From: an uncultured Fimbriimonadaceae bacterium
Lineage (GTDB): Bacteria; Armatimonadota; Fimbriimonadia; Fimbriimonadales; Fimbriimonadaceae
Length of the DNA: 39,500 nt
Assembly (NCBI GenBank): GCA_964583465.1
Contig: CAZOVP010000005.1
Location: 165,296-204,795, forward strand
Direction: 5' to 3'
Numbering within the stretch: the stretch's first letter is position 1; the number at the start of each line of letters is the position of its first letter. A model generated the notes under the pieces. It made no database searches. It worked only from the letters and a program-made list of their open reading frames with translations, and was not told where the DNA came from. Both the position numbers and the translations under genes were made by a program. Shown here one piece after another: positions 3,429-39,500 of the stretch.

Positions 3429-3504
3429 GGGGGCGTAGCTCAATGGCGAGAGCACCTGCTTTGCAAGCAGGGGGTTAGGGGTTCGAGTCCCCTCGCCTCC
3501 ACCA
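3429..3504 (+). tRNA. tRNA-Ala (anticodon TGC), CCA encoded
   Basis: 76 nt cloverleaf: acceptor GGGGGCG/CGCCTCC with G3:U70, D-loop AGCTCAATGG, anticodon loop CTTTGCAAG (TGC), T-arm GGTTCGAGTCC, discriminator A then CCA. Confidence 0.9.
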
Positions 3505-19164: not shown

Positions 19165-20399
19165 TTGTATCGATCAACTGAAATCTGAGCAGGTGGTTTA
19201 CTCCCTTCGAGAATCTCAACCATCATTTGGCCGGTGATCGGAGCAAGACTGACCCCCATCATTCCATGGCCTGTTGCAAAGAATATTCCAGGGGCCCTAT
19301 CTGTTCCTCCCAAATAAGGCATTCCATCTGGTGAACAGGGGCGCAATCCAGACCAAACTTGACCCTCTGACACTGAATCCGCGCCGGATTTGAACTTTGG
19401 TAAGAATGTGCTCAAACCTGTCTTCATTCCTCCCAGCCGGACCAAATCGATAGACAAATTCCACTCCCCAAGTTCCATTGTTCCTCCAATTCTCACTCCA
19501 CCGACCATTGGTGTGACCGCGAGTCGGGCTTCTTTTAGCAGTAAGGGCCTTGTGAGTTGAGGAACATTTTCAGTCAAAGAAAAGCTCATCCCCTTGCCCG
19601 GCTGCAGTGGCAGGTTCACTCCGGCCGTTTTTGCTAATTTGCCAGAGGCCGCACCAGCTGCCACGATTATCGCATCCGCATTTAGAGTTTGATGATCCAA
19701 TTGAACTGCTGGTTGAGAACCGGCTACTAACGAAGTTACTTTGTTCGACCACAAAAACTGGACACCGCGCTCCATCAAGGCCAGCTTGAGATGAGCCACA
19801 AAGAGGTGGGGTGACACATGAGCGTCCTCGGGAAATTCGACTCCTCCCAGGACATCAGCACCTAGGTCTGGTTCCAAAGCGAAGATTTCATCTCCAGAAA
19901 TGACTCGTGCTTCCATTCCTAATCTGTGTGCATGCAGAGCAACCTCCGCTTCTTCTTCTATCCCTTCATGCGTATGACAGAGCATCAGCAGACCACGCTC
20001 TTGAAACCCGAATGGGTTATCCCAGTCCTTCGAAAATTGACGAAATAGCTCCCTACTTTTGCGATGCAGATTCAAAAGAATTGGCGCACATTGTTCGACA
20101 TGGGATTCATTGCAATGAGCTTGAAACTGCAGGCACCAAGACGCTAGTCCTTGATCTAAAGACGGTTTAATTCGAAATGGACTGTCCCGCTTCATCATCA
20201 TTTTGAGCCCGGTCAGCACCATCCCCGGCGATGCCAATGGCACGAAATGGCTCGGAACAATAATTCCAGAATTGCCTAGGGAGCACCGATCCCCTTCCAT
20301 TGGGCCAGAGTCTATAAGAGTGGCTTCATGGCCAGCCTGGGTCAGATACCAAGCGCAACAAAGCCCAACAACTCCGGCCCCAACAACAAGAACACGCAT
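19161..20399 (-). CDS. FAD-dependent oxidoreductase (DAO family, D-amino-acid dehydrogenase-like)
   Basis: N-terminal dinucleotide-binding motif MRVLVVGAGVVGLCCAWYL...LID. The rest matches the DAO fold. Confidence 0.75.
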   Translation of the reverse strand: MRVLVVGAGVVGLCCAWYLTQAGHEATLIDSGPMEGDRCSLGNSGIIVPSHFVPLASPGMVLTGLKMMMKRDSPFRIKPSLDQGLASWCLQFQAHCNESHVEQCAPILLNLHRKSRELFRQFSKDWDNPFGFQERGLLMLCHTHEGIEEEAEVALHAHRLGMEARVISGDEIFALEPDLGADVLGGVEFPEDAHVSPHLFVAHLKLALMERGVQFLWSNKVTSLVAGSQPAVQLDHQTLNADAIIVAAGAASGKLAKTAGVNLPLQPGKGMSFSLTENVPQLTRPLLLKEARLAVTPMVGGVRIGGTMELGEWNLSIDLVRLGGMKTGLSTFLPKFKSGADSVSEGQVWSGLRPCSPDGMPYLGGTDRAPGIFFATGHGMMGVSLAPITGQMMVEILEGSKPPAQISVDRYN

Positions 20400-20449
20400 T
20401 TGAGATAAGAATTTACACTTCTAATGAAACAGGATTTGTCGCACCAGGA

Positions 20450-22423
20450 TCAACTCCAAACCCGGATCAGGCTGCACCCATGGGATCGAATGTTGAGATT
20501 CACAGATCCGGTGGCTCGTCCCATGTCCCTTTGACGCCACAGGTCGCGAACCCTTTTCGCAGGTTTTGTGCCGAGCTCTGACCATTTGTAAGACTTTGAG
20601 ACGGCTGAATCGCCAAGGTTAAAGATTCCAATGGCCATGCTTCCGTCTTCTAGGTTCCGCCCCCAAACTTGAATGTCTCCCTTCATACTGATTCGGTGCG
20701 CGGGCTTACCCAAAGGATCTTGATTAACGGCGATGACTTCGTCGTTCGTTAAAAGGTTCAGAGTAAATTCATCGAGCCTCGTCATATCGCATCCAATAAG
20801 AAGCGGTGATGATAGTAGCGACCACAGCGAAATGTGAGTGTATTGCTCGCTTGGAGTGAGTCGCGTCGGATGAAGTTGTGGCCCCCATCCCACCCATCCC
20901 ACGACGAGCATATCGGGGTCATTCCAATGGCCGGGTCCTGCAAATTTCTCGTGCCCATCTTGGCTGAAGCCAATTCCGCTCAAACTTTCCCACGAATCGG
21001 TGATGTCACCCGTTGTTCGCCAGCAATTTCCTCCAACCGATTCTCCCCACTTCCAAACATCACCCATTCCATATTGACACAAGCTATAAACGATATCGCG
21101 GTTGACCTTTTTGAGTGCTTGTTGCATCACTTCATATGGTTTTTTAAGATTGTCCAGCCCTTCTGGTTTCTGAATTTGGGAATAACTGCACCAATCATAT
21201 TTGATGTAGTCAAACCCCCAATCGGCCATTTTCTTAATGTCCTGTTCCTCGTGGCCATAAAAAGCTGCGTATCCACCACAAGTTGTCGGCCCAGGGCTAG
21301 AGTAAATTCCGGCTCGTAGTCCGTAACTGTGAATCTTATCTGTCAAGGCTTTCATGTTAGGAAATTTCTTGTTAGTCAAAATCTCCCCATTTTGGTCCCG
21401 AGTGGCTCCACCGACGATCGGGTCATTGGAGTTTGGAACTATCGACCAGCAATCGTCGATATTGATGTACTGCCAACCGTGATTAATGAGCCCCGAGTTG
21501 ACAAATGCTTTCGTCGCATCAAGAACTTTTTGTTCATCGACAGCATTGGCAAAACAGTTCCAGCTATTCCATCCCATGGGCGGTGTCAATGCGAGCTTGT
21601 CACCGATGACAAGACTCAATTTTCGAGTTGAACGTCCCATGGCATTTTTTGCAACGAGAGTAAGTTCATAGGTTCCATTGGCAGGCGTGGTGCCCGAAAT
21701 CACTCCGTTTGAAGACAACTTGAGCCCGTCTGGCAACTTACTTACGGAATATGTCATGGGTTGCTGACCAGTCGCTGGAATCTTCCAAACAAATTCGCGA
21801 TTCGCTCTCGCGCCAACTCGTTTCGGCCCATTAATTCGAGGTGCTTTTGGTGGTTTTGGAGTCAAGATATAAGGTTTCTCGATAGAGGGAACCATTATTA
21901 TTGGTTTTTTGCCAGAGTAATCGATTTGTGGCATTGCCCAATCTGCGTGATCATAATCGATTTCGTCGCCACCATTGCCGGCTTTAAGAGTTAGCAATTT
22001 GACACCTTTGAGAGGAACAGAAACTTTGATAGGGCCATCACCTTTCTTCAATTTTCCTGAATTAAACTTTTCAACCCCGTCGCAAAACACGTGAAAGTCG
22101 ACATCCCCATTGTCATTCGGAATTTCGTCGTCGACTCCAACAAAAGCCGTGAAAGCGATGGCCCGACCATCCAGGGCAATCTTAATATTTGAGACAGCAT
22201 GTGTTCCGATCCCATTTCCAAATCCTTGCCCCGCAATTCGAATCGGGTTGCCATCGACAGACTTATTTCTTTGCGCCGAACCCCAACCTTGTCGAATATG
22301 AGTCAAATCAAGATCGGATAAGAAGATCGATTTGACTTGTTGAGTGGCAAGTAGAGCGAGAGGCAAAAACATTATCAACATTGTTGCTTGAAAGTCTTGC
22401 CAATGGCAAGTGAGAGCCCTCAC
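20450..22423 (-). CDS. Secreted GH27 alpha-galactosidase / alpha-N-acetylgalactosaminidase with N-terminal NPCBM carbohydrate-binding domain and Ig-like domain
   Basis: NPCBM signatures (GTHAVSN, VGVDDE, FHVFCDG, DHADWA). Ig-like segment YSVSKLPDGLKLSSNGVISGTTP. GH27 motifs PPMGWNSWN, IDDCW and KYDWC. The true start is probably the internal Met at MLIMFLPLALLA (about 22381). Confidence 0.8.
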   Translation of the reverse strand: MRALTCHWQDFQATMLIMFLPLALLATQQVKSIFLSDLDLTHIRQGWGSAQRNKSVDGNPIRIAGQGFGNGIGTHAVSNIKIALDGRAIAFTAFVGVDDEIPNDNGDVDFHVFCDGVEKFNSGKLKKGDGPIKVSVPLKGVKLLTLKAGNGGDEIDYDHADWAMPQIDYSGKKPIIMVPSIEKPYILTPKPPKAPRINGPKRVGARANREFVWKIPATGQQPMTYSVSKLPDGLKLSSNGVISGTTPANGTYELTLVAKNAMGRSTRKLSLVIGDKLALTPPMGWNSWNCFANAVDEQKVLDATKAFVNSGLINHGWQYINIDDCWSIVPNSNDPIVGGATRDQNGEILTNKKFPNMKALTDKIHSYGLRAGIYSSPGPTTCGGYAAFYGHEEQDIKKMADWGFDYIKYDWCSYSQIQKPEGLDNLKKPYEVMQQALKKVNRDIVYSLCQYGMGDVWKWGESVGGNCWRTTGDITDSWESLSGIGFSQDGHEKFAGPGHWNDPDMLVVGWVGWGPQLHPTRLTPSEQYTHISLWSLLSSPLLIGCDMTRLDEFTLNLLTNDEVIAVNQDPLGKPAHRISMKGDIQVWGRNLEDGSMAIGIFNLGDSAVSKSYKWSELGTKPAKRVRDLWRQRDMGRATGSVNLNIRSHGCSLIRVWS

Positions 22424-22440: not shown

Positions 22441-23916
22441 GTGTCTGTGGCCCCGTATTTAGAATTTTGCGGTCTCTCCAAGAGCTTTCCTGGTGTCCAA
22501 GCTCTTCAAGATGTCAGTTTTGGGGTTCGAGGGGGTTCGGTTCACGCGCTGTGTGGCGAAAATGGAGCTGGAAAAAGCACGCTTCTCAAAACTCTTTCGG
22601 GAGTGAATCGACCAGATTCTGGAGTGATAAAGCTCAATGGCCAAGAGCATGTATTTTCTAGTGCATCACAAGCCATAGACGCGGGAATCGCTGTCATTTA
22701 TCAAGAATTGCACTTGGTGCCCGATCTCAACGTTGCAGAGAATCTTTACTTAGGGCACTTCCCATCAAAAATTGGCATCGTCAATAGAAGCCAACTTCAT
22801 GCCGATTGCCAGGTTCTTCTAGACGAACTTGGGCTCGAATTCTCACCTCAGACACGAGTAGGTGATCTAGCAATTGCTGAACGACAAATGGTGGAGATTG
22901 CAAAAGCTCTGACACGAAATGCCCGCGTGATTGCATTTGACGAACCCACTAGTAGTTTAAGCAGTCGCGAAGTTGAAAGCCTGTTTGCGACGATTGCTAA
23001 GTTGCAATCCCAAGGCAAAGTGATTCTCTATGTGTCACACCGAATGGATGAAATTGGTCGAATTTGTGATTCTGCGACCGTTTTGCGCGACGGTCGACAT
23101 GTCATTACTTTTGAATCTATGGAAGGCGTAACGACCGATAAGATTGTTGAAAATATGGTCGGTCGCAAAATCGAAGATATCTTTCACTATCGGCCTCGTG
23201 AGCACGGTGAAGAAATTATTTCAATTCATTCGCTGAAAGGACCCGGATTGTCAGAGCCAGCCTCGCTTCAAGTGAAAGCTGGCGAAATTGTTGGCATTTT
23301 TGGGCTGGTTGGGGCTGGTCGGACTGAGTTCCTGAAAGCCCTTTATGAATCTGGGCAAGGAAACATCAAAATTCACGGCCAAGAGGTCAAAATTCGATCA
23401 CCTAGGCAAGCCATAAAAAGTGGGATCGTCTTGTGCCCAGAAGATCGAAAGAAAGAAGGCATTATTGCCTTAAGAAGTGTGAAAGAGAATATCAATATTG
23501 CTCGGCGAAAAGGCATCGTGATCAACGAACGCGAGGAATCTGCGCTCGCTCATCAAATGGTTGAAAAGCTGGGAATTAAGACTCCAACCATCGAGCAGCT
23601 CGTCAAAAACCTTTCGGGCGGGAATCAGCAAAAGACGATTTTGGCTCGATGGCTGGGTGGAGATGTGCAAGTGATTCTCTTGGATGAACCTACTCGTGGA
23701 ATTGATGTTGGAGCAAAAAGCGAAATTTACGAGATCATCTACGATTTGGCTGAACGTGGTATTGGAGTGATTCTGGTGTCCAGTGAATTGCCTGAAGTTC
23801 TCGGTGTTTGTGATCGAATCGTAGTCATGAACTCGGGGCGATTTGTGGCCAGCGTGGATCGAACTGATGCCACTGAAGACAATCTTTTGAAGCTAGCATT
23901 GCCCGGCGTCGCTTAA
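22441..23916 (+). CDS. Sugar ABC transporter ATP-binding protein with duplicated NBDs (RbsA/MglA/XylG-like)
   Basis: First NBD Walker A GENGAGKST. Second NBD has a degenerate P-loop (GLVGAGRTE) and an LSGGNQQK signature. No permease or binding-protein gene is adjacent. Confidence 0.85.
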   Translation: MSVAPYLEFCGLSKSFPGVQALQDVSFGVRGGSVHALCGENGAGKSTLLKTLSGVNRPDSGVIKLNGQEHVFSSASQAIDAGIAVIYQELHLVPDLNVAENLYLGHFPSKIGIVNRSQLHADCQVLLDELGLEFSPQTRVGDLAIAERQMVEIAKALTRNARVIAFDEPTSSLSSREVESLFATIAKLQSQGKVILYVSHRMDEIGRICDSATVLRDGRHVITFESMEGVTTDKIVENMVGRKIEDIFHYRPREHGEEIISIHSLKGPGLSEPASLQVKAGEIVGIFGLVGAGRTEFLKALYESGQGNIKIHGQEVKIRSPRQAIKSGIVLCPEDRKKEGIIALRSVKENINIARRKGIVINEREESALAHQMVEKLGIKTPTIEQLVKNLSGGNQQKTILARWLGGDVQVILLDEPTRGIDVGAKSEIYEIIYDLAERGIGVILVSSELPEVLGVCDRIVVMNSGRFVASVDRTDATEDNLLKLALPGVA

Positions 23917-23978: not shown

Positions 23979-25547
23979 ATGTTTCAAAGACTCATTCCTT
24001 TTTTGCTTGGCCTGACCCTGGGCGGTTCGGCGTTAGCGCAATATCAACACGAAAACGTTGAGCTCTATCGACACTACACGCTTTCGGAATTTAGTTCCGG
24101 AAGTGGCAACTCTTGCTGGGGATATGTGAGTCCTTCAGGTCGCGAATACGCCATTATGGGGCTCGATAACAAGACAGCTTTTGTCGAAATAACCGACCCA
24201 AAAAACACTCAGTATTTTGCTCAAATTCCCCATTCATCTGGGCTTTGGTCTGATGTCAAAGTCTATAAAAACGCCCTGTATGTCGTGACAGAAAATAGCG
24301 GGAGCGGTGTTCAGGTCATCGATCTCAGCAATATCGATAACCACCAAGTCACTTTGGTGAAGACACTTACGAAGCCTGGACGTTCACACACCATCTTTGT
24401 GGATACCGATAGCGGATTTCTTTACAACTGCGGAACGAACGAAGGAACGGGGACAACAATGGCATTTAGCCTTGCTGATCCACTCAATCCAGTTCAAGTG
24501 GGCTCAAATTCGCTCACACCTGGTTATATTCATGAATGCCAGGTCATCACTTATAAATCAGGACCCTATGCTGGGAAACAGATTTTCTTTGGGGGAGGAA
24601 CTCAAAGAGGGCTCGAAATATATGACGTCACCGACAAATCCAACGTCAAATTGATTCGCAGAATCACCTATCCTTTTGTAGGCTATTGCCACCAAGTTTG
24701 GTTATCTGAAGACTTGAAGTATGCCTATGTCAATGATGAATTTGACGAATCACAGCAGTCGTTCAACGTGAGAACTCTCGTTTTTGATGTAAGCGTTTTG
24801 GAAACGGCCGATCTCGTGTCGACTTATACAAACGGTCGCCCCACAATAGACCATAACATTTATGTTAAGAATGGATTCATTTTCCATTCGAATTATACGA
24901 GCGGATTCTGGATTTTCGATGGCAATTCCAACCCTACAAATCCGACTTATCGTGGTTATTTCGATACCTATCCTTCTGGAGACCCGCGCCAATATAACGG
25001 AACTTGGAGCAATTATGATTTCTTCCCGAGTGGAACCTGTATCATCAGCGATCTCGATGACGGACTCTTTATCGTAGATGTTTCGAATGCAACTAAAACT
25101 CCTCTAAACGCCGACGTTGCCCTGGCCATGCGAGGAAGCATTGCAAGTGGTGGACCAGCGGAATTATCAGGTACCGATGGCAAGACAATGGACATCGATC
25201 GGGGCTTGGTAGCAAACATCTTTGAGGCTCCTATTACAACGGTATTCGAAGGCAAGTCACCCTGGAAAGATATTTCCAAAATTCAGTTCAAAGTGGTGAA
25301 TAGTGTAAATGCGCCAGGGCTCAATCAGAGGATCGAACTTTATGATTGGACGACCCGAACGTGGGTTCAAGTTTATGCGGGAATCGCTTCTCAGACTATG
25401 GCAGAATCACTTGGTTTAGGTTCAAACCCAGATCGATTTGTCGATCAGACCACGTTGGCCATTCGTGCAAGAGTCAGAATCGGATCGCTTGCAACTCCGA
25501 GCTTTAGCACTTCGATCGATGAAGTGAAGTGGATCATCAATCCCTAA
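23979..25547 (+). CDS. Secreted LVIVD-repeat beta-propeller protein, paralog 1 (choice-of-anchor-B-like) with uncharacterised C-terminal domain
   Basis: Signal peptide. Repeated hydrophobic-x-hydrophobic-D-hydrophobic-S/T-x-hydrophobic units with a PxNP tail (VQVIDLSNIDN, LEIYDVTDKSN, LVFDVSVLETADL, FIVDVSNATKT). Conserved NSCWGYVSPSGREYAIMG and FVGYCHQ motifs. Ends ...KWIINP. Confidence 0.75.
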   Translation: MFQRLIPFLLGLTLGGSALAQYQHENVELYRHYTLSEFSSGSGNSCWGYVSPSGREYAIMGLDNKTAFVEITDPKNTQYFAQIPHSSGLWSDVKVYKNALYVVTENSGSGVQVIDLSNIDNHQVTLVKTLTKPGRSHTIFVDTDSGFLYNCGTNEGTGTTMAFSLADPLNPVQVGSNSLTPGYIHECQVITYKSGPYAGKQIFFGGGTQRGLEIYDVTDKSNVKLIRRITYPFVGYCHQVWLSEDLKYAYVNDEFDESQQSFNVRTLVFDVSVLETADLVSTYTNGRPTIDHNIYVKNGFIFHSNYTSGFWIFDGNSNPTNPTYRGYFDTYPSGDPRQYNGTWSNYDFFPSGTCIISDLDDGLFIVDVSNATKTPLNADVALAMRGSIASGGPAELSGTDGKTMDIDRGLVANIFEAPITTVFEGKSPWKDISKIQFKVVNSVNAPGLNQRIELYDWTTRTWVQVYAGIASQTMAESLGLGSNPDRFVDQTTLAIRARVRIGSLATPSFSTSIDEVKWIINP

Positions 25548-25569
25548 TTCTAAGTCGTGCAAAAAAGAT

Positions 25570-25598
25570 TGCGGGGGCGATTTCAAATCGCCCCCGCA
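25570..25598 (+). terminator. Rho-independent-terminator-like hairpin after paralog 1
   Basis: Perfect inverted repeat TGCGGGGGCGAT-ttcaa-ATCGCCCCCGCA (12-bp GC-rich stem), followed by TTATTACT. Confidence 0.55.
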
Positions 25599-25687
25599 TT
25601 ATTACTAGATTTCATCACAGCAACACTTCGAGATTTCATTCAAAAAGAGAATATCCTGTGGTATCTTTCCCCTACTGAACTTTAAGC

Positions 25688-27313
25688 ATGCCAAAGTCAG
25701 TCACTTTCCTTGCTGGAGACATCATGATTCATTTGAGAAATATCGGGATCCTGGCAATTGCCGTTGCTGGTTCGGTTGCCCAAGCCCAATTGATAAAGGA
25801 CATTAGCCTTTACAAACAGTTCACACTTTCACAACTCGGCGCAACAGCAGGAAATTCCTGTTGGGGATATGTTTCGCCAAGCGGCCGAGAATACGCAATT
25901 ATGGGGGTCAATAACAAGGTTGCATTCGTTGAAATTACAGACCCTGCCAATGCGGTCTATTTTGCGAGTATCCCTCACGGCAGTAGCAGTTGGGCAGATA
26001 TCAAAACATACAAGACGGCCTGCTATGTCGGAACAGAATTGTCTGGTTCAGGAGTCCAAGTCATAGATCTCAGCAATATCGACAACCATGTCGTGACCTT
26101 AGTGCGAACAATCGCAAATCCTGGTCGTACACACACTCTCCACGTCGATAACGATAGTGGTTTTCTTTATTGCTGTGGAAGTCGCGAGTCACTTGGAACG
26201 ACGATGTGCTTTAACCTTACCGATCCACTTAATCCAGTGGTCACTGGCTCTGCGAGCTTAACAGGAACAAGCTATCAGCACGAAACAATCGTTCATACCT
26301 ACACATCAGGTCCTTACGCTGGCAAACAAATCATGTTTAGCGGAGGTGAAGGTCGTGGAGTCGAAATTTGGGACGTGACAAACAAGAGTGCAGTGACCCT
26401 CGTTCGGCGAATATCTTATCCATTTGTTGGTTACTGCCACCAGAGTTGGCTCAGCCCAGACTTTCATTATCTTTATGTGAATGACGAACTTGATGAAAAT
26501 AATTCGCCTGGTTCAGTTCCCCTGACTCGAACTCTGGTCTTTGACATCAGCGTTTTGGCTACTGCCGATCTTGTTTCCACGTTTTCGACTGGAAAAACTG
26601 GTATCGACCACAACCTTTACAACAAGAACAACTTCATTTTCGAAGGAAACTATACAACTGGCCTCAACATCTTTGATGCAAATGCCAACCCGCTCAACCC
26701 AGTTTATCGAGGCTGGTATGACACTTATCCTGCCAATAATAACGTTTCATTTAATGGAATGTGGAGCAACTATCCGTTCTTCCCAAGCGGCACTGTGATT
26801 TGTGGCGACATCAATTCTGGGCTCTATATTTTCGACGTATCTCAAGCGACAAAGACAAACTTTGCTGTGGACAATGTCATGGCCATTAGAGGCAACGTTT
26901 TAAGCGGAAGTTTAAGCTCAATCGGCACTACTGATGGAAACTACTATGTCGTTCAAGCTGGACTAGTTCCAACTCCTAATGACGCGCCGATTCAAATCGT
27001 ATTCGAAGGTACATGCCTGTGGACGGATATCAGCAAGATTCAATTTGAAGTTCGACACAAAGTGAGCTCTTTGAATCTGGGGCAGACGGTCGATCTTTGG
27101 GATTGGAACACCAATTCTTGGGTCAATTTCGATACTTCAGCGGGTTCGACAACAGATGTCACAACAACGATTTTGGGTACCAATCCAGACCGATTTGTGG
27201 ATCCTGTGTCCAAAAAGATGAAGGCGAGATTGAGCGTGAAAAAGACGGGAATCGTCCCTACTTTGGCTTACAAAGATTCGGTTGATTACGCAAACTTCAT
27301 TGTCAACCCATAA
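25688..27313 (+). CDS. Secreted LVIVD-repeat beta-propeller protein, paralog 2
   Basis: Collinear with paralog 1 (NSCWGYVSPSGREYAIMG, GSGVQVIDLSNIDNH, FVGYCHQSW, FDVSQATKT). Ends ...ANFIVNP. The true start is possibly the Met at MIHLRNIGILAIAVAG (about 25724). Confidence 0.75.
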   Translation: MPKSVTFLAGDIMIHLRNIGILAIAVAGSVAQAQLIKDISLYKQFTLSQLGATAGNSCWGYVSPSGREYAIMGVNNKVAFVEITDPANAVYFASIPHGSSSWADIKTYKTACYVGTELSGSGVQVIDLSNIDNHVVTLVRTIANPGRTHTLHVDNDSGFLYCCGSRESLGTTMCFNLTDPLNPVVTGSASLTGTSYQHETIVHTYTSGPYAGKQIMFSGGEGRGVEIWDVTNKSAVTLVRRISYPFVGYCHQSWLSPDFHYLYVNDELDENNSPGSVPLTRTLVFDISVLATADLVSTFSTGKTGIDHNLYNKNNFIFEGNYTTGLNIFDANANPLNPVYRGWYDTYPANNNVSFNGMWSNYPFFPSGTVICGDINSGLYIFDVSQATKTNFAVDNVMAIRGNVLSGSLSSIGTTDGNYYVVQAGLVPTPNDAPIQIVFEGTCLWTDISKIQFEVRHKVSSLNLGQTVDLWDWNTNSWVNFDTSAGSTTDVTTTILGTNPDRFVDPVSKKMKARLSVKKTGIVPTLAYKDSVDYANFIVNP

Positions 27314-27337
27314 AGGTTAGCAACGAGAAATAACCAA

Positions 27338-27361
27338 GGCTCCAAAAGATCTTTTGGAGCC
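27338..27361. terminator. Bidirectional terminator-like palindrome between convergent genes
   Basis: Perfect 24-nt palindrome GGCTCCAAAAGATCTTTTGGAGCC, with a T-rich tract on the plus side (ttgattgtttatgatttt). Confidence 0.5.
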
Positions 27362-27369
27362 TTGATTGT

Positions 27370-28092
27370 TTATGATTTTCCTGTTTGGGTTGGAATTTCA
27401 AACTGGCAACCTGAAGTGAGTTGATCTGGGGCGGCATCAAGTCGCAAAAGTTTTCGCTCAGAATGGGTTAAGTCTGCAATTCGGTAGCTAAGTTCCTGGA
27501 GCATCGTTTTGCTGTATCCGGGATAGGATTTATCGATAGTCCCTCCTGGTGCAACAAGCGTTGTATAAACGCCCCGGTCGGCTTTGAACGCCTTGATTGC
27601 TGTGCAATCTGGGTCGCACAAAATGGTGAAGTCGGGCTTGACTTTCGTCCTCCATGCCTTGGCCTGATCAGAATTGCCGTTGATGATACCAACGACATTC
27701 AACTTTCCCCGGTAGTATTGCGAAGCAGAATCTACGAAGAGCTTGGCATTCAAGCAGCACGGACACTCTTTTTCAATAAAAAAGATCAGCAGTGGGCGGT
27801 CTTTCCAAAGACTCCGCAACTCAACCTCGATTCCAAATGGAGTCTCAAGAGTTTGGTTTGCAGCTTGATTTGAGACCATTCCATTTGCGACCTTCATCAT
27901 ATCATCGGTCACCGGGTGGTTTTTCTGTGGCCGAAGATTAAGTTTCAATTCATTTGAATCTTGGATATCATCGGAGGGCCATTTGATTACAAAGAGAGCG
28001 ATAGTCCCCGCGCATGCGACTGCGAGAGCATAACTAAAGAATTTTGGAATTCTCACGATCTCCACACCGACTTCAGTGTACGGGATTTTCAA
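27370..28092 (-). CDS. Membrane-anchored thioredoxin-fold protein (TlpA/redoxin-like) with CPCC active-site motif
   Basis: N-terminal TM helix (FFSYALAVACAGTIALFVI). Thioredoxin-fold context LLIFFIEKECPCCLNAKLF...VVGII. Confidence 0.6.
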   Translation of the reverse strand: MKIPYTEVGVEIVRIPKFFSYALAVACAGTIALFVIKWPSDDIQDSNELKLNLRPQKNHPVTDDMMKVANGMVSNQAANQTLETPFGIEVELRSLWKDRPLLIFFIEKECPCCLNAKLFVDSASQYYRGKLNVVGIINGNSDQAKAWRTKVKPDFTILCDPDCTAIKAFKADRGVYTTLVAPGGTIDKSYPGYSKTMLQELSYRIADLTHSERKLLRLDAAPDQLTSGCQFEIPTQTGKS

Positions 28093-28180
28093 AACTCTTG
28101 CTGTGACGTTCTAGATGAGAACAATTTCGGGGTATGTTGAATCTCCATCTGGTTCTTGTGAAACCGAATAAGACTCCGGT

Positions 28181-29737
28181 TTGGTATTTAGAGGAATTAT
28201 GAGATTTGTTCTTGCATCCAGTTTGATTCTGTTATCCGGCCTCGCGATGGCGGATACCGAGTATTCGGCCAGTAAAGTGAAATTGCTTGCCCACTTAGAT
28301 CTCACAGCTTTGTCATGTCGCTCGGGTAACACCTGTTGGGGTTATGTGAGCAAATCGGGTCGGGAATACGCTCTGATGGGTTGCAGCAACAAAATGGCTG
28401 TTGTCGATGTGACGAATCCTAAAGAATCGAAGCTCGTCGCCTCTGTTCCTCATTCTGATGGGCTTTGGTCAGATATCAAAGTTTATAAAGACACGGCTTA
28501 TGTTTCAACAGAGACCAGTGGAACTGGAATCCAAGTTATTGACCTCAGCAAGATTGATGATGGCAAAGCAACACTTATCCGAACCATTACAACGCCGGGT
28601 CGCTCCCACACCATTGCCTTAGACGAAAAGGCTGGATTTCTTTACACATGTGGAAGCAACGAGGGCGTCTCAAAGGGAGCGACCACTTGCTTTGACCTCA
28701 AAGATCCTCACGACCCTAAGCGAGTTGGGGCACCTACACTTACACCGGTTTATCAGCATGAATCGCAGGTTGTCACATATGACAGTGGCAAATACAAAGG
28801 TCGAACCATCTTTTTCGGGGGTGGTGAAGGCCGAGGTCTAGAGATTTGGGATGTCACAGATAAAGATAAGCCCTTCCTGGTTAAGAGGGTGGCCTATCCA
28901 TTCGTGGGGTATTGCCACCAAGGTTGGCTCAGTGCTAACAAAAAGTATTTCTATGTCAACGATGAATTTGATGAGAGTACCAATAGCATTGCGACGCGTA
29001 CTCTGGTTTTCGATGTCAGTGATCTTGATTTTGCAGATTTAGTATCGACATATACGACAGGGCGATCATCCATAGACCATAACCTCTATACAAGAAACGA
29101 CTTTATTTTTCACGCGAATTACACAACTGGGCTATGGATCTTTAACAGTAACGAGAACCCCCAGAGCCCCAAAGTCTGTGGGTTCTTCGATACTTTTCCG
29201 GCTGACGACAACCCACACTTTGATGGTGCCTGGAGCAACTACCCATTCCTGCCAAGTGGCACAGTTCTCATCAGCGATATCAATCAGGGTTTGTTTGTTG
29301 TTGATGCCAGCGAGGCCACAAGAACTCCGTTTCCCGTAACCAAAATGGCCGACAGCAAATCCGATCTTTCGATCGGCGACCTTTTAAGCATCGATGAAAA
29401 GGCTGTGGCGATCAAAGGATCGGGTTCGGCCTCATTCACATTCGAAGGGAAATGCAACTGGACAGGAATAAGCAAATTGGCAATTTCTCTCACTGGTCGG
29501 TCGATGAAAGGAGAAGTGAGCGGACACATTGAGTTCTATAACTTTGCTACCAAAGCTTATGAGCAAAAATCCGTCGTGAAATGGAGTGCCAATTCAGCTG
29601 AATCCACGATTAATGTGAAGGATCCCAACAAATATCTTGATCCAGCTTCAAAATCTTTGAGAGCAAAATTAACAATTGCAAACCAAGGAACTTGGTCGGC
29701 GCAAATTGATCAGGCCCAGTGGATTCTCAACCCATAA
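28181..29737 (+). CDS. Secreted LVIVD-repeat beta-propeller protein, paralog 3
   Basis: Collinear with paralogs 1 and 2 (NTCWGYVSKSGREYALMG, GTGIQVIDLSKIDD, FVGYCHQGW, FVVDASEATRT). Ends ...AQWILNP. Signal peptide begins at MRFVLASSLILLSGLAMA. Confidence 0.75.
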   Translation: MVFRGIMRFVLASSLILLSGLAMADTEYSASKVKLLAHLDLTALSCRSGNTCWGYVSKSGREYALMGCSNKMAVVDVTNPKESKLVASVPHSDGLWSDIKVYKDTAYVSTETSGTGIQVIDLSKIDDGKATLIRTITTPGRSHTIALDEKAGFLYTCGSNEGVSKGATTCFDLKDPHDPKRVGAPTLTPVYQHESQVVTYDSGKYKGRTIFFGGGEGRGLEIWDVTDKDKPFLVKRVAYPFVGYCHQGWLSANKKYFYVNDEFDESTNSIATRTLVFDVSDLDFADLVSTYTTGRSSIDHNLYTRNDFIFHANYTTGLWIFNSNENPQSPKVCGFFDTFPADDNPHFDGAWSNYPFLPSGTVLISDINQGLFVVDASEATRTPFPVTKMADSKSDLSIGDLLSIDEKAVAIKGSGSASFTFEGKCNWTGISKLAISLTGRSMKGEVSGHIEFYNFATKAYEQKSVVKWSANSAESTINVKDPNKYLDPASKSLRAKLTIANQGTWSAQIDQAQWILNP

Positions 29738-29747
29738 ATCAATATGG

Positions 29748-30314
29748 CTAGGCTTGTGGCGTCCCGTCTGGGATTCCACAACCAATGGCCGTTGTAAAAG
29801 GTTTTGAAACGGGTTGACCATCCAAAATTTCTTTGAGTGCGATCCTCAGGTCTTGACGAATGTCGCCTTCCCGCACTCGGCTGTGTTCGGTGTACATGTC
29901 GTTTATTCGACCACGATAGAGTAGTGATCCATCGGCTGAAACAACAGCAACTTCAGGGGTGATGGTCATTCCTAGTGCTTTCACCAAGATATGTTTTTGA
30001 TCCAAAAATGCCTGGCTCGGCATCTTAAAATCCACTCCATGCTGCTTGATTTCTTCAATCGTCACCGAATCGTCTACATAAATCCTGAAAAACGAAATCC
30101 CTTTTTCGTGGAAATCTTTATAAAGTCTCGACATTTCGGGGGAGTATCGATTACTGATCGGGCAGTCAACAGCAATAAAAAGTAGCACTGTGGCCTTTGC
30201 GGTCTTGTCGGGCAATTTAAGCTCCTTACCTTCAATGTCCGTCAGGTTTTGCGCCGGCAAATGAACTGGAGCGTCTTGCTTTAGCGCAAGAGAAAGTGCA
30301 AGCAGAGAAATCAT
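29748..30314 (-). CDS. Thioredoxin-fold protein (AhpC/TSA/redoxin-like) with CxxS (CPIS) motif
   Basis: ATVLLFIAVDCPISNRYSPEMSRLYKDF context typical of redoxin-like proteins, with a single active-site Cys. Convergent with paralog 3, with a 10-nt gap. Confidence 0.55.
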   Translation of the reverse strand: MISLLALSLALKQDAPVHLPAQNLTDIEGKELKLPDKTAKATVLLFIAVDCPISNRYSPEMSRLYKDFHEKGISFFRIYVDDSVTIEEIKQHGVDFKMPSQAFLDQKHILVKALGMTITPEVAVVSADGSLLYRGRINDMYTEHSRVREGDIRQDLRIALKEILDGQPVSKPFTTAIGCGIPDGTPQA

Positions 30315-30372
30315 ATGTCTATTTTGACGTCCGAGGCGGACAAAACGTTAACCCAAGTAAAATAAGTTTAAC

Positions 30373-31590
30373 TTGAAGCTTTATTCTTGGATTCTCTACG
30401 GGATTGCTCCTTTTTTGGCTGCGATCTTGTTTCCGAGCCCCGCAAAGGCTCCAGCAACCACGTTTTCCCAGGATATCAAGCCACTCATCGATCAAAAGTG
30501 CATTTCATGCCACTGCAAAGGCGGGAGTGCCCCATTTGCTTTGCAAACGTATGCCCAGGTGAAGAAACGATCTGAACTCTGCCAGCGAATGATGTTGACA
30601 CGAATGATGCCTCCTTGCCCTACATCATCGGAATTTGGAGAGTTTTGCGAAGGTGGTGGCCCGCTCACGGATTCAGAAGCTGTTGTGCTCCAAAACTGGG
30701 TGAACGGTGGATGCCTTGAAGGCGAAAAAACTGAGCCTAAAGCTGGGCTTGATCCCAAAGTCTGGATCAACGGTACTCCTGATATTATTGTCAAGCCAAA
30801 CAAAGTCGAGCCGATCCCAGAAGAGGGTCGACCTTATTGGATGGCTTATGTGATTCCCACAAAGAGCTTTAAAGACCGAAGAATTCAGGCTTTTGATTTC
30901 AAAGTCAAACAGCCGTTGGCCATAAGATCCATAGTTGTGGCGATGGCGAGGCCAGGACTTTTGCAAACGAAGAGAGCGAGGGAAGGGTGGACAACCGGTG
31001 GAAGTCTTGATGATGATGCCCAAACTTATTTAGGTGTTTGGGCGAGCGGATATCCAATTTGGAAGCTACCCAATGGTGTTTCTTTCCCAGTGACTAGCGA
31101 CGCCTTAGTCGTGCAAGTTTTGTATTGGCCAAGAGGCAAGGCCGAAAGTGGAGATTTCGAGCTTGGACTTTATTGGAGCAAAACAAAACATGAAAAGACT
31201 CCTGAATGGAAAACTCTCGGGCAAGAAGAGTTTTCAGTCCCGGCTCCGGGCTCATTGGTTCTTAATCCTTCTGGCGAGCTTCCCAACCACAGCGATATTC
31301 TCGCTGTCTTTCCAGAAGCGAGGTTTTTTTGCACAAGCATTCGGCTCTGGGCCAACGATAAGCTGATATTTATGACCCGGAGATGGGAACCCTATTGGCA
31401 GGGCCCAAACCGATTTGAAACGCCAATCAGGTTTGATGACAAGGCTTTGCTCAGAACCGAATTCAACTACGACAACGACATTCATATGGGTAGAAATGAA
31501 GGGCGGAGGCCCCGCCCCATTATGGGCGGAACACGAGAGCGGGATGAAATGTGTCGAATTCACGTACTCTATGTTCGATCTAAAACCTAG
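30373..31590 (+). CDS. Secreted mono-heme cytochrome c-like protein: N-terminal planctomycete-type cytochrome c (PSCyt1-like) domain plus uncharacterised ~290 aa domain
   Basis: Signal peptide, then IKPLIDQKCISCHCKGGSAPFAL with a CxxCH heme-binding motif, then a ...MMPPCP... segment as in PSCyt1 domains. The C-terminal part was not recognised. Confidence 0.6.
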   Translation: MKLYSWILYGIAPFLAAILFPSPAKAPATTFSQDIKPLIDQKCISCHCKGGSAPFALQTYAQVKKRSELCQRMMLTRMMPPCPTSSEFGEFCEGGGPLTDSEAVVLQNWVNGGCLEGEKTEPKAGLDPKVWINGTPDIIVKPNKVEPIPEEGRPYWMAYVIPTKSFKDRRIQAFDFKVKQPLAIRSIVVAMARPGLLQTKRAREGWTTGGSLDDDAQTYLGVWASGYPIWKLPNGVSFPVTSDALVVQVLYWPRGKAESGDFELGLYWSKTKHEKTPEWKTLGQEEFSVPAPGSLVLNPSGELPNHSDILAVFPEARFFCTSIRLWANDKLIFMTRRWEPYWQGPNRFETPIRFDDKALLRTEFNYDNDIHMGRNEGRRPRPIMGGTRERDEMCRIHVLYVRSKT

Positions 31591-32807
31591 AGAACGCGCA
31601 CTCCGTTCGCCCAAACCTGATTTGGCCTTGGCCCACAAATCCAGGTCGCAACTTCTTCCCAATCTGCCATCGGCCAAATTGAAAAGTCGGCCTTTGCACC
31701 AACTTCGAGACTTCCACGGTCGTAAAATCCTAAGGAGTCGGCTGCAGTGATCGTTACAGCTTTAAGGCACTCTTTGGGGGTCATGGAGAGCATTCGGCAA
31801 GAAAGGGCCATGACAAACGGAATCGAAGGAGTTGGCGATGAGCCAGGATTGAAATCGGTCGCAAGAACTACGGGGAGCCCAGCATCAAGCATGGCTCGGG
31901 CATGCGGATATTGGGTTAGACCAAGCCCTAGCACGCTGCCAGGTAGCAAAACTGGAAATGTGCCTGATTCCAACAGTGCACCGATTGCAGAATCATTCAT
32001 ATTTTCGAGGTGATCCGCCGACTTGGCCAGGCAACGGGCCGCAAATTGCGCACCAGAACCTTCAGTCAACTGATCAACATGGAGCCTGAGATCCAGCCCA
32101 CCGGCTCGGGCAGCAGTGAGAAACCTTTCTGTAGTGGCTTGATCGAAATATCCGGATTCTATAAACGCATCAACGGATGTAGCAAGTTTGGCGCGAGTGA
32201 CGATGGGCAGGATTTCGGAAATGACAAAGTCTGTGTAGTCGCTTGCAGATTCGAATTCTGGAGGAACCGCATGGAGCCCCAAAAACGTTGGGACGACACG
32301 CGATCCCAAGGTGTCGTTGACCATTTGGCAAAAGGTGGAATCGACTCGGTGAATGGCCAAGAGGAGATTGATTTCGGTTTCGACATCTTGGCCATAACCA
32401 GATTTGGCCTCAAGTGTCGTAGTTCCTGATTGAAGGCACCATGTGAGATGTTTGAGCCCAATTTGAAAAAGCTCTTCTTCAGATGTCTGGCGTGTCGCTT
32501 GGATAGTGCTTCTTATGCCACCACCAAGTGCTGATATATCTTGATATGATCGACCTTGCGAACGCCATTCTAGTTCACGAGACCGGTTTCCGCCAAAAAT
32601 AAGATGAGTATGTGCATCGACAAAACCAGGAAGCACCACACCCCCTTCGGCATCAAAAATATCGTCGACCGGTGGCGGTGTTCCAGTTCCAATTTCGATG
32701 ATGTTTGGGCCATTGATCACCAGAAAAGCATCTTTTGAGACAAGAAAGTCTTGGGAATGCCGCAAGTGCGTTGCAAACTGTCCAATATTGACGATTGCTT
32801 GGGCCAC
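31587..32807 (-). CDS. hutI: Imidazolonepropionase
   Basis: Amidohydrolase metal-binding motif VLPGFVDAHTHLIFGG, and overall collinearity with HutI. Neighbours are ftcD and hutU. Confidence 0.85.
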   Translation of the reverse strand: MAQAIVNIGQFATHLRHSQDFLVSKDAFLVINGPNIIEIGTGTPPPVDDIFDAEGGVVLPGFVDAHTHLIFGGNRSRELEWRSQGRSYQDISALGGGIRSTIQATRQTSEEELFQIGLKHLTWCLQSGTTTLEAKSGYGQDVETEINLLLAIHRVDSTFCQMVNDTLGSRVVPTFLGLHAVPPEFESASDYTDFVISEILPIVTRAKLATSVDAFIESGYFDQATTERFLTAARAGGLDLRLHVDQLTEGSGAQFAARCLAKSADHLENMNDSAIGALLESGTFPVLLPGSVLGLGLTQYPHARAMLDAGLPVVLATDFNPGSSPTPSIPFVMALSCRMLSMTPKECLKAVTITAADSLGFYDRGSLEVGAKADFSIWPMADWEEVATWICGPRPNQVWANGVRVL

Positions 32808-32854
32808 AGATTCTTTTACCCGCTCGGAGAATCAGAATTGCAGGTAGAAATATG

Positions 32855-34543
32855 ACTATGAGCCAGAGACTCGTCGAGTGTGTTCCCAATTTTTCTGAAG
32901 GAAGGGATCAGAGGGTAATCGATGCTATTGCCCAAGCGATCCGAGGTAGCGTTGGTGTTAAGCTGCTTGATGTTGACCCTGGTTATGCCACGAACCGGAC
33001 GGTTTATACTTTTGTAGGAGCCCCGGAAGATGTGATTGAAGCTGCGGTTGTCGCGGCTAAAGTTGGTGCCGAACTCATCGATATGACCAGGCATTCGGGC
33101 GAGCACCCTCGTTTTGGCGCCCTTGATGTTTGTCCGCTCATTCCAATTAGCGGAATCTCGATGGAAGAAACGGTGAATTACGCTCAGAAATTAGCTCAGA
33201 GATTAGGAGAAGAGGTTGGCATGTCCGTATATCTCTATGAAAACGCAGCTCGCGAGGAATACAGGCGAAACTTGGCCGATATACGCGCTGGAGAATACGA
33301 GGGCTTGGCAAAGAAGCTCGCTTCACCAGAATGGAAACCAGATTTTGGATCGCTCGTGTTTCAACCCAGGCTCGGTGCGACGGCCTGTGGTGCTCGAGAG
33401 ATTTTGGTGGCATACAACGTTAATCTCAACACGACTTCAACGCGAAGAGCCAATGCTGTGGCATTTGATGTCCGAGAAAAGGGCCGTGTTTGCCGAAAAG
33501 GCGATCCTCTAATCGGTGAAGTGATTCGAGATGAAAACGGGAATATCGTTTACGAACCCGGGCTCTTGAAAAATGTCAAGGCCATCGGCTGGTTTATCGA
33601 AGAATATGGACTTGCTCAGGTTTCGATGAACTTGACTAATATCAGCGAAACTCCTCTTCACGTTGCCTTTGAGGAAACCAACGAACGCGCTCGCGAGCGG
33701 GGCATGCGAGTGACTGGATCCGAGCTTGTGGGGCTTGTTCCACTAAGTTGCATGATCGAAGCAGGCCGATATTTTCTAAGAAAGCAACAGCGATCAACAG
33801 GTGTTTCAGATTCTGAACTCATTCATATTGCGATCACGAGCATGGGGTTGGATCAGCTTTCAGAGTTCGACCCAAACAAGAAAATTATTGAATATGCCAT
33901 GGAGGATGATTCGACCAAAAGGTTAGTCAATTTGACTGTCAAGGAATTTGTGGAGGAGACAGCTAGTGAATCGCCAGCGCCAGGCGGAGGATCTATTGCA
34001 GCAACAATGGGAGCTATGGGTGCCGCACTCGCGACAATGGTGGCTAACCTTTCTGCGCACAAGAGGGGCTGGGACGAAAGGTGGGAAGAATTTAGCGATT
34101 GGGCCGAAAAAGGAAAGCAGTATCACAGCCGACTGGTATCGCTTATCGACGAAGATACTGATGCTTTTAACGAACTCATGGCGGCATTTTCACTCCCTAA
34201 AGGTTCGGAAACCGAATTACTTTTGCGAAATGAATCGATTCAAAACGCTACGAAACGTGCCGTCGAGATCCCGTTGCTCGTGATGAAGAATGCCTGTGAC
34301 TCGATGCACGTTATAAAAGCTATGGCAGAAATCGGAAACCCAAACTCGGTGTCGGATGCAGGCGTTGGCGCATTGGCTGCAAGGTCGGCGGTTCTAGGTG
34401 CTTGGCTCAATGTGAAAATTAATTGTGGTTCCATCAAAGACGAATCGTTTGTCAATCAATCGTTATCACAAGGACAAGCAATTGTTAATCTGGCGATCGA
34501 ACGGGAAACGGAAATTCTCCAAATCGTTGATTCGAAGTTATGA
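32855..34543 (+). CDS. ftcD: Bifunctional glutamate formimidoyltransferase / formimidoyltetrahydrofolate cyclodeaminase (FTCD-like fusion)
   Basis: N-terminal VECVPNFSEGRD transferase motif. C-terminal cyclodeaminase motif SPAPGGGSIAATMGAMGAALATMVANL. Start placed at MTMSQRLVECVPNF; the track ORF extends to 32795. Confidence 0.85.
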   Translation, partial: TMSQRLVECVPNFSEGRDQRVIDAIAQAIRGSVGVKLLDVDPGYATNRTVYTFVGAPEDVIEAAVVAAKVGAELIDMTRHSGEHPRFGALDVCPLIPISGISMEETVNYAQKLAQRLGEEVGMSVYLYENAAREEYRRNLADIRAGEYEGLAKKLASPEWKPDFGSLVFQPRLGATACGAREILVAYNVNLNTTSTRRANAVAFDVREKGRVCRKGDPLIGEVIRDENGNIVYEPGLLKNVKAIGWFIEEYGLAQVSMNLTNISETPLHVAFEETNERARERGMRVTGSELVGLVPLSCMIEAGRYFLRKQQRSTGVSDSELIHIAITSMGLDQLSEFDPNKKIIEYAMEDDSTKRLVNLTVKEFVEETASESPAPGGGSIAATMGAMGAALATMVANLSAHKRGWDERWEEFSDWAEKGKQYHSRLVSLIDEDTDAFNELMAAFSLPKGSETELLLRNESIQNATKRAVEIPLLVMKNACDSMHVIKAMAEIGNPNSVSDAGVGALAARSAVLGAWLNVKINCGSIKDESFVNQSLSQGQAIVNLAIERETEILQIVDSKL

Positions 34544-39440: not shown

Positions 39441-39500
39441 GGTCGGGGCAGCGGGATTTGAACCCACGACCTCTTACCCCCCAGATAAGCGCGCTACCAA
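39441..39500 (-). tRNA. tRNA-Pro (anticodon GGG), 3' portion, truncated by the window end
   Basis: The reverse complement ends ...GTGGGTTCAAATCCCGCTGCCCCGACCA: T-arm, acceptor 3' strand TGCCCCG, discriminator A, CCA. Anticodon stem CTTAT/GTAAG with loop CTGGGGG (GGG, G37). D-loop CCTGGTAGCGC-like. The 5' acceptor and D-stem lie beyond position 39500. Confidence 0.7.

Follow-up and report, generated by a model that had tools for sequence, protein, structure and literature searches.

What do three secreted propeller proteins do at a locus where their genes alternate with genes for thiol and heme redox proteins, and do the two sets of genes form one system? The question is raised by a 39,500-nucleotide stretch of contig CAZOVP010000005.1 from an uncultured Fimbriimonadaceae bacterium (Armatimonadota), here called the window, part of which encodes three choice-of-anchor B proteins (CAB1, CAB2, and CAB3), two thioredoxin-fold proteins (Rdx240 and Rdx188), and a heme protein (Cyt405). 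All six open reading frames (ORFs) that a first-pass annotation of this DNA had claimed are present (lengths in amino acids, aa):

23979..25547, plus strand: CAB1, 522 aa; signal peptide, seven-bladed beta-propeller, C-terminal beta-sandwich
25688..27313, plus strand: CAB2, 541 aa; architecture as CAB1; TIGR04312 E 2e-88
27370..28092, minus strand: Rdx240, membrane-anchored AhpC/TSA-type thioredoxin-fold protein with CPCC motif; Pfam AhpC-TSA
28181..29737, plus strand: CAB3, 518 aa, the most divergent paralog; TIGR04312 E 1e-99
29748..30314, minus strand: Rdx188, exported TlpA/ResA-like thioredoxin-fold protein; Pfam AhpC-TSA and Redoxin, NCBIfam ResA-like
30373..31590, plus strand: Cyt405; signal peptide, monoheme cytochrome c domain, PHM/DBH-fold body

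In our model, the region would be a mosaic of two units that are neighbors mainly by inherited gene order. The first would be a lineage-specific tandem array of secreted TIGR04312 propellers, in which a ring of residues at the mouth of the central channel (H137, H185, H238, and H292 with D92, E105, E/D186, D253, E254, D256, and D358) may constitute a (bi)metal catalytic center; the CAB proteins would act outside the cytoplasm as metal-dependent enzymes, most likely as Sb-PTE-like hydrolases, with a terminal beta-sandwich for binding or anchoring. The second would be Rdx188 and Cyt405, an independent periplasmic heme/thiol redox module in which the replacement of the PHM copper sites by Arg/Glu/Arg would leave heme/thiol electron transfer plausible but not copper monooxygenase chemistry. 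We hold this combination of exported metallo-enzymes and an independent redox pair with even confidence. No major paradigm is changed, and the tandem paralogs are already correctly named in public annotation; what is added is a metal-like site with its link to Sb-PTE, the recognition of a copper-less heme/PHM protein, a start-codon error, and an unmodeled terminal domain.

The CAB proteins are ordinary members of a functionally blank family

The three same-strand proteins had been called paralogous on the strength of shared sequence blocks; these blocks are present, and pairwise alignment gives 56% identity to CAB1 for CAB2 and 50% for CAB3. Their assignment to the choice-of-anchor B family is firm, all three matching TIGR04312 over nearly the whole model (profile positions 8/11 to 362 of 364) with 317.8, 297.0, and 334.0 bits for CAB1, CAB2, and CAB3, respectively (E 1e-88 to 1e-99; curated cutoff 100). 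The LVIVD repeat (PF08309) that had been proposed alongside it is marginal in CAB1 (20.5 vs 20.2 bits, with no individually significant stretch) and gives no match in CAB2 or CAB3, and a few homologs carry precomputed PF08309 matches. As had been described, the proteins are secreted, having signal peptides, and lack a recognized sorting tag: in Pfam and NCBIfam at E<=0.1 they have no PEP-CTERM, T9SS, or LPXTG match, nor any match on CAB1-3 to a sorting or anchor model of the kind from which TIGR04312 takes its name.

Membership in TIGR04312 requires only the domain match and not a recognized anchor feature. CAB1-3 resemble the family in being secreted propellers, as predicted for LVIVD proteins, and differ in that their C-terminal module is none of the recognized anchors. 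The family is without an assigned function, and membership gives CAB1-3 no mechanism. The assignment itself is already public knowledge: public relatives are labeled Fimbriimonadaceae or Armatimonadota and usually named 'choice-of-anchor B family protein' (NCBI, JGI), and CAB1 is identical to a protein encoded on several public contigs. The start of CAB3 in public records differs from the ORF start in the window, and the true start of CAB2 may be the internal Met 13 (MIHLRN...). A literature search for 'choice-of-anchor B' returned no relevant paper. Altogether, the CAB paralogs belong as ordinary members to a named family of blank function and have a C-terminal variant specific to this phylum.

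An AlphaFold model of CAB1 built from 59 homologs (pLDDT, the predicted local confidence score, 93.4) comprises, after a signal peptide of about residues 1-20 (ending ...GGSALA before QYQ), a propeller at about residues 28-367 with seven four-stranded blades, of which blade 7 is completed by the N-terminal strand, and a C-terminal domain, all-beta as well, at about residues 374-522 that ends in WIINP. Genomes with homologs have multiple CAB paralogs each, two other loci (L012 and L013; loci from other genomes are given L numbers) having two tandem CAB genes apiece. Near-identical CAB copies are filed under Bacteroidia, Singulisphaera, and Actinomycetota metagenome-assembled genomes (L026-L028), a scatter that suggests binning contamination.

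An invariant His/carboxylate set suggests a metal center in the propeller channel

Conservation was sampled in 59 close CAB homologs and in 21 homologs from Planctomycetota and other phyla (L010-L030) at 39-50% identity. Twelve polar positions are invariant in 59/59 close homologs (H137, H185, H238, Q239, H292, N293, E105, D216, D253, E254, D256, and D358), as are W47, Y49, and W343, and position 186 is Glu or Asp in all 59. The His/acidic set is invariant in 21/21 of the distant homologs too, the sole exception being H85, which is present in 58/59 close homologs and replaced by Gly in most of the distant ones; E105, H137, H185, H238, E254, and H292 are thus the same in 80/80 homologs. In the secondary structure of the CAB1 model, the innermost strands of blades 3-6 open with the His residues, and E105, D253/E254, and D358 lie at the ends of second strands; across blades 2-7, the conserved positions fall where strand A starts or strand B ends. 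Because of standard propeller topology, such positions should fall on one face around the central channel, and we infer that the conserved His and acidic residues cluster around one channel mouth. This pattern suggests a metal center in the central channel.

By structure comparison, the solved structure nearest to the CAB1 fold is that of Sb-PTE, likewise a seven-bladed propeller. Sb-PTE is the beta-propeller phosphotriesterase of Sphingobium sp. TCM1 (PDB 5HRM/5IOJ), a recently evolved xenobiotic hydrolase with a binuclear Mn center. Its metal ligands, which we take to be E201, H258, H317, H389, E407, and H475, would follow a Glu-His-His-His-Glu-His order with one ligand per blade, presumably the same order as E105-H137-H185-H238-E254-H292 in CAB. 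The two differ greatly in sequence (12-14% identity), with no sequence-level match even when the family profile is used.

Several points weigh against this model. Sb-PTE ranks ahead of generic WD40 propellers by a narrow margin only, and neither CAB1 nor its 59-sequence profile has a sequence match in the PDB. The correspondence with the ligands of the 2016 Sb-PTE structure is putative, the clustering of the residues comes from strand topology and not from distances, and both metal binding and hydrolase chemistry are predictions for TIGR04312 proteins. In addition, CAB genes adjoin the redox pair in three different arrangements (see below), which indicates somewhat more than passive synteny between the two units.

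In one alternative, the CAB propellers would have no catalytic activity and would serve at the surface or in binding, as adhesins, S-layer-like proteins, or scaffolds, with conserved channel residues that are structural or bind a ligand or ion. It agrees with the usual description of LVIVD-repeat proteins, which have been treated as cell-surface proteins possibly involved in protein-protein interaction or attachment (10.1101/2022.05.06.490989; PMC2447325). Moreover, most of the top structural neighbors of CAB are WD40 scaffolds, the variable C-terminal modules, including dockerin-like repeats in Planctomycetota, would suit surface display, and multiple paralogs per genome would suit diversified binding. 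However, four His and seven acidic residues that are absolutely invariant across phyla at 39-68% identity fit a catalytic metal site better than a binding surface, which as a rule varies between paralogs, and the best-ranked solved neighbor is an enzyme. We therefore consider a purely surface role rather unlikely.

In Armatimonadota, Planctomycetota, and other phyla, choice-of-anchor B proteins are common but have a name and a blank function. The invariant His/carboxylate ring together with the structural nearness to Sb-PTE provides a testable hypothesis for the whole family, and it is tempting to speculate that the link hints at a natural ancestry of Sb-PTE, a xenobiotic enzyme.

The terminal beta-sandwich is a modular domain

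Each paralog ends, as had been noticed, in a domain of about 150 aa with a W/F-I-x-N-P terminus. The isolated domains have no Pfam match at E<=5 and no NCBIfam model. Across the fetched loci, a hidden Markov model (HMM) of the domain detects it 23 times, and 23/23 of these copies end 0-3 residues from the stop codon. The W-I-x-N-P motif forms the last strand and becomes FRITR, WKIVP, and similar sequences in more distant members. Three carriers have no CAB propeller, two of them in L008 and one in L044:

L008, 4242-6569, minus strand: 776 aa, unknown fold
L008, 20615-21541, minus strand: PD40-like protein
L044, 5869-7020, minus strand: 383 aa

A fourth occurrence outside CAB, in L042, was discounted as a contig-edge fragment in which a CAB gene most likely ends. 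A database search with the domain profile gave no significant match, so a wider spread rests on these three local examples.

Elsewhere, PEP-CTERM, T9SS, and dockerin-type ends hold the position that this domain holds here. The CAB homologs of Planctomycetota have long extra regions and end in dockerin-like DxNGDG repeats instead; these proteins are 740-930 aa long, with pairs of DxNGDGxVDxxDL repeats followed by a terminal Cys-Pro or similar. The domain is thus modular and strictly terminal, and it fills the 'anchor' slot in this phylum. Its placement makes it a candidate for a phylum-specific terminal sorting or anchoring domain, and it probably serves binding or anchoring. As a by-product, the analysis reveals an unmodeled C-terminal domain common to secreted Armatimonadota proteins.

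Rdx188 and Cyt405 form a split redoxin-cytochrome-PHM module

The redoxin motifs first noted, CPCC in Rdx240 and CPIS (CxxS) in Rdx188, are present, and both proteins exceed the Pfam AhpC-TSA (PF00578) cutoff of 26 bits, with 42.3 bits for Rdx240 and 44.0 bits for Rdx188. Rdx188 also matches Pfam Redoxin with 36.9 bits, and its best NCBIfam match is ResA-like (E 1.4e-8), with a score of 34.8 bits vs an equivalog cutoff of 170; Rdx240 has weak matches to Bcp and SelL-related models (22 bits vs cutoffs of 140 and 120). Both proteins resemble TlpA/ResA in having a thioredoxin fold and in being exported or membrane-anchored, but they score far under the ResA, StoA, and Bcp equivalog cutoffs. Rdx188 differs further in having CPIS rather than CxxC, in a second Cys (xGC) that is conserved some 125 residues on, and in a conserved partner that is a heme/PHM-fold protein and not a cytochrome maturation system. 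Its conserved motifs, as aligned with orthologs and fused domains, are DCPI[S/A]NRYxPE, VTPE, YRGRIDD, and the C-terminal xGC. For Rdx240, no counterpart was found in the related loci apart from a weak 28% match elsewhere in L038, and at this position it is unique to this genome.

Cyt405 had been described as a PSCyt1-like CxxCH protein. The CxxCH motif is there, but Pfam does not detect PSCyt1, and the description missed a PHM-fold body. The heme motif C43-x-x-C46-H47 together with M79-P80 is essentially invariant in homologs, and CxxCH, a distal Met, and a signal for export, together with the cytochrome c fold, mark Cyt405 as a c-type cytochrome. The nearest Pfam cytochrome model, PccH, scores 16.1 bits vs a cutoff of 24.4, and Cyt405 differs from PccH and planctomycete-type cytochromes in that its heme domain is attached to a larger protein and is not a free cytochrome. 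A two-domain fold, a pair of beta-sandwiches, takes up about 290 of the 405 residues and is like that of the copper type II ascorbate-dependent monooxygenases PHM (peptidylglycine alpha-hydroxylating monooxygenase) and DBH (dopamine beta-hydroxylase); the animal enzymes lack the N-terminal monoheme cytochrome c domain. Cyt405 has no match to the Cu2_monooxygen models PF01082 and PF03712 at E<=0.1, and only distant fused relatives reach PF03712.

When the PHM ligand positions, His-His...His at CuH and His-x-His...Met at CuM, are mapped by family HMM alignment, the copper-ligand positions of Cyt405 are R185, S186, L250, E315, and R317, all five His being replaced, together with M393. The Met is variable in the Cyt405 clade, whereas Arg/Glu/Arg themselves are conserved there. 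A profile search with Cyt405 retrieves 12,909 cluster representatives at E<=1e-3, and the full copper set HH...H...HxH...M is present in 73 of the best 170 of them. The family thus has two subtypes, one with six copper ligands and one with conserved Arg/Glu-x-Arg; among representatives P0142-P0289, examples of the family are P0151, P0200, P0240, and P0281. The cytochrome-PHM protein is often joined to a redoxin at its N terminus, to TPR repeats at its C terminus, or to both; 15 family members carry a fused redoxin, some of them with the TPR repeats. Because these fused redoxins share the Rdx188 motifs DCPI[S/A]NRYxPE and YRGRIDD and the distal xGC Cys, Rdx188 and Cyt405 are, from sequence comparison, the split form, and a copper-less subtype, of a widespread redoxin-cytochrome-PHM module. 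The whole protein has no Pfam or NCBIfam model, and a search for literature on bacterial PHM-like heme proteins found no relevant paper. A second by-product is therefore a very large uncurated redoxin-cytochrome c-PHM-fold family with copper-complete and copper-less subtypes.

In public records, Cyt405 is called from an internal ATG (327/328 aa), and the signal peptide and the heme motif are lost. The error covers window positions 30373-30603 (77 codons) and also affects several homologs, for example P0134 and P0137. Because tblastn alignments in other genomes begin at Cyt405 residues 7-30, the long form with a TTG start is the real one, and a systematic gene-start error strips the heme domain from public annotations.

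Adjacency of CAB and the redox pair probably reflects largely inherited gene order

Two further genes lie at the edges of the region, and three arrangements are compared among loci:

22441..23916, plus strand: two-domain ABC ATPase, 491 aa; Pfam ABC_tran x2, E 1e-50
31587..32807, minus strand: hutI-like amidohydrolase (imidazolonepropionase), convergent with Cyt405; Pfam Amidohydro_1/3
arrangement CAB> <Rdx Cyt>: window, L001, L002, L040, L044-L046
arrangement CAB> <Cyt Rdx>: L004, L007; without hutI
arrangement <Rdx Cyt> CAB>: L009; without hutI

Two samples were compared, one started from CAB (9 Armatimonadota genome loci and 21 loci of other phyla) and one from Cyt405 (nine loci, L036-L038, L040, and L042-L046), which avoids ascertainment via CAB; a metagenome scan with the Cyt405-family alignment gave one locus. 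In the first, the Rdx188/Cyt405 pair directly adjoins CAB in 5/9 Armatimonadota loci and, HMM searches included, in 0/21 loci of other phyla. In the second, Rdx188 is adjacent to Cyt405 in 9/9, the order Rdx188-Cyt405-hutI is kept in 8/8 loci that have downstream flank, and CAB is adjacent in 5/9 (L040, L042, L044, L045, and L046) and missing from L036, L037, L038, and L043. The co-conservation of redox neighbors that the first-pass annotation had set as a check therefore stands for the redoxin and the heme protein, which recur together in other Armatimonadota, but not for Rdx240, and CAB is absent at 4/9 loci.

The Rdx-Cyt-HutI order is found in the window, L001, L002, L036-L038, L040, and L043-L046, and the pair sits at the edge of a histidine-utilization cluster (hutI, FTCD, urocanase); hutI is not part of the system, yet it is the invariant downstream neighbor of the pair. 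Because the hutI linkage is constant and CAB is adjacent in only 5/9, much of the CAB/pair adjacency is inherited gene order. CAB3 orthologs (62-65% identity, tblastn) are the CAB genes directly upstream of Rdx188 in L001 and L044, and CAB1/2-type genes follow a two-domain ABC ATPase. From these comparisons, the ancestral order would be ABC-CAB(1/2)-CAB(3)-Rdx188-Cyt405-hutI-FTCD, to which the window would have added a CAB1/CAB2 duplication and the Rdx240 insertion.

Could the CAB proteins and the pair nevertheless form a three-part system in Armatimonadota, in which the pair matures a metal or cofactor center of CAB or the proteins perform successive steps on a shared substrate? CAB lies directly beside the pair in three arrangements, and the pairs of L004, L007, and L009, only 28-33% identical to that of the window, are divergent and without hutI, so that CAB and the pair have stayed together through rearrangement; export signals are present on all components. 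There are also precedents: genes for the propeller enzyme methanethiol oxidase (MTO) come with SCO1 and MauG genes, and PHM and the propeller lyase PAL act successively in animal PAM. But the pair occurs without CAB in L036, L037, L038, and L043, most CAB paralogs of the same genomes and all 21 non-Armatimonadota loci are without the pair, and L004, L007, and L009 were found via CAB, so that their adjacency is partly an ascertainment effect. The pair's family is also far larger (12,909 clusters), and a CAB-Cyt405 fusion, sought as Rosetta-stone evidence, is absent from the 169 family members screened. Finally, the PHM fold of Cyt405 lacks all copper ligands, making PHM-type hydroxylation unlikely. 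Such a system is in our judgment unlikely.

A broader version would make TIGR04312 a large class of secreted metallo-propeller enzymes, joined into one system with the copper-less pair in Armatimonadota, and the W-x-x-N-P sandwich a new phylum-specific sorting or anchoring domain. By analogy to peptide amidation by animal PHM and PAL, the pair might then mature the His/carboxylate center or carry out a prior step. That all of these parts hold jointly is quite improbable.

A redox-active cysteine pair is not conserved

The paralogs had been credited with two invariant Cys each, in CWGYVS and FVGYCHQ; the window paralogs in fact share three (C46, C151, and C237 in CAB1 numbering), which are retained in 52/59, 40/59, and 47/59 close homologs, respectively. 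In blades 1 and 5, it is the innermost strand that carries C46 and C237, beside the conserved W47 and H238. Only one of the two is present in 13/59 close homologs, indicating independent loss, and C237 is Ser or Ala in 15/21 distant homologs, where C46 is kept in 21/21. C151 has as its likely partner a Cys at alignment position 162 (49/59), which CAB2 and CAB3 have and CAB1 is without; on neighboring strands of blade 3 in the model, the two look like an ordinary structural disulfide.

The proposal that C46 and C237 form a disulfide or a metal/cofactor site kept by the interleaved thioredoxin-fold proteins and cytochrome draws on the presence of both Cys in all three window paralogs, on C46 being Cys in 73/80 homologs, and on the physical interleaving of the redox genes here, but it fails the conservation test set for it beforehand, the two Cys not being conserved across homologs. 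In addition, Rdx240 is unique to this genome, the pair is without CAB at 4/9 loci and is present at none of the non-Armatimonadota CAB loci, and blades 1 and 5 do not adjoin each other in a propeller of seven blades. Conservation largely refutes the proposal, which is very improbable.

Transcription units and surroundings

Two hairpins that resemble bidirectional terminators lie in the CAB region:

25570..25598: 13-bp stem with 9 G-C pairs, directly 3' of CAB1
27332..27367: 13-16-bp stem, between the convergent CAB2 and Rdx240

Because of these strong hairpins after CAB1 and between CAB2 and Rdx240, the genes are read as separate transcription units, and a CAB1-CAB2-CAB3 operon was rejected in view of the hairpins and the interleaved opposite-strand genes. 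In contrast to the long perfect hairpins after CAB1 and CAB2, two convergent gene ends are extremely tight: only 10 nt separate CAB3 from Rdx188, and Cyt405 shares its last 4 nt with hutI, leaving no space for terminators. Rdx188 and Cyt405 point away from each other, with 58 nt between them. Base composition does not vary along the region, which therefore shows no sign of being foreign.

The ABC ATPase gene ends 62 nt upstream of CAB1, with no permease gene adjoining. An ABC gene followed by CAB is seen in the window, L002, L004, L005, L040, L045, and L046, L005 being without the redox pair. This ABC-CAB link persists no less than that with the redoxin and cytochrome, and the ABC ATPase is possibly the first gene of the CAB unit.

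Downstream (31587-34543 and beyond), hutI, glutamate formimidoyltransferase/cyclodeaminase, and an M28 peptidase form a histidine-utilization cluster, which in relatives (L037, L040, L043, and L044) includes urocanase and arginase-family genes too. An Rfam scan of the window finds two tRNAs only, neither inside the CAB/redox region; one gene is complete (3429-3501, plus strand) and the other (39443-39500, minus strand) is cut by the window end. Upstream (13960-16551, minus strand, and 17701-22423, minus strand), with names taken from the gene tables of an identical public contig, lie genes for a CHAT-domain/TPR protein (859 aa), a sulfatase, a DAO-type FAD oxidoreductase, and an NPCBM-alpha-galactosidase, suggesting a neighborhood rich in exported or degradative functions.

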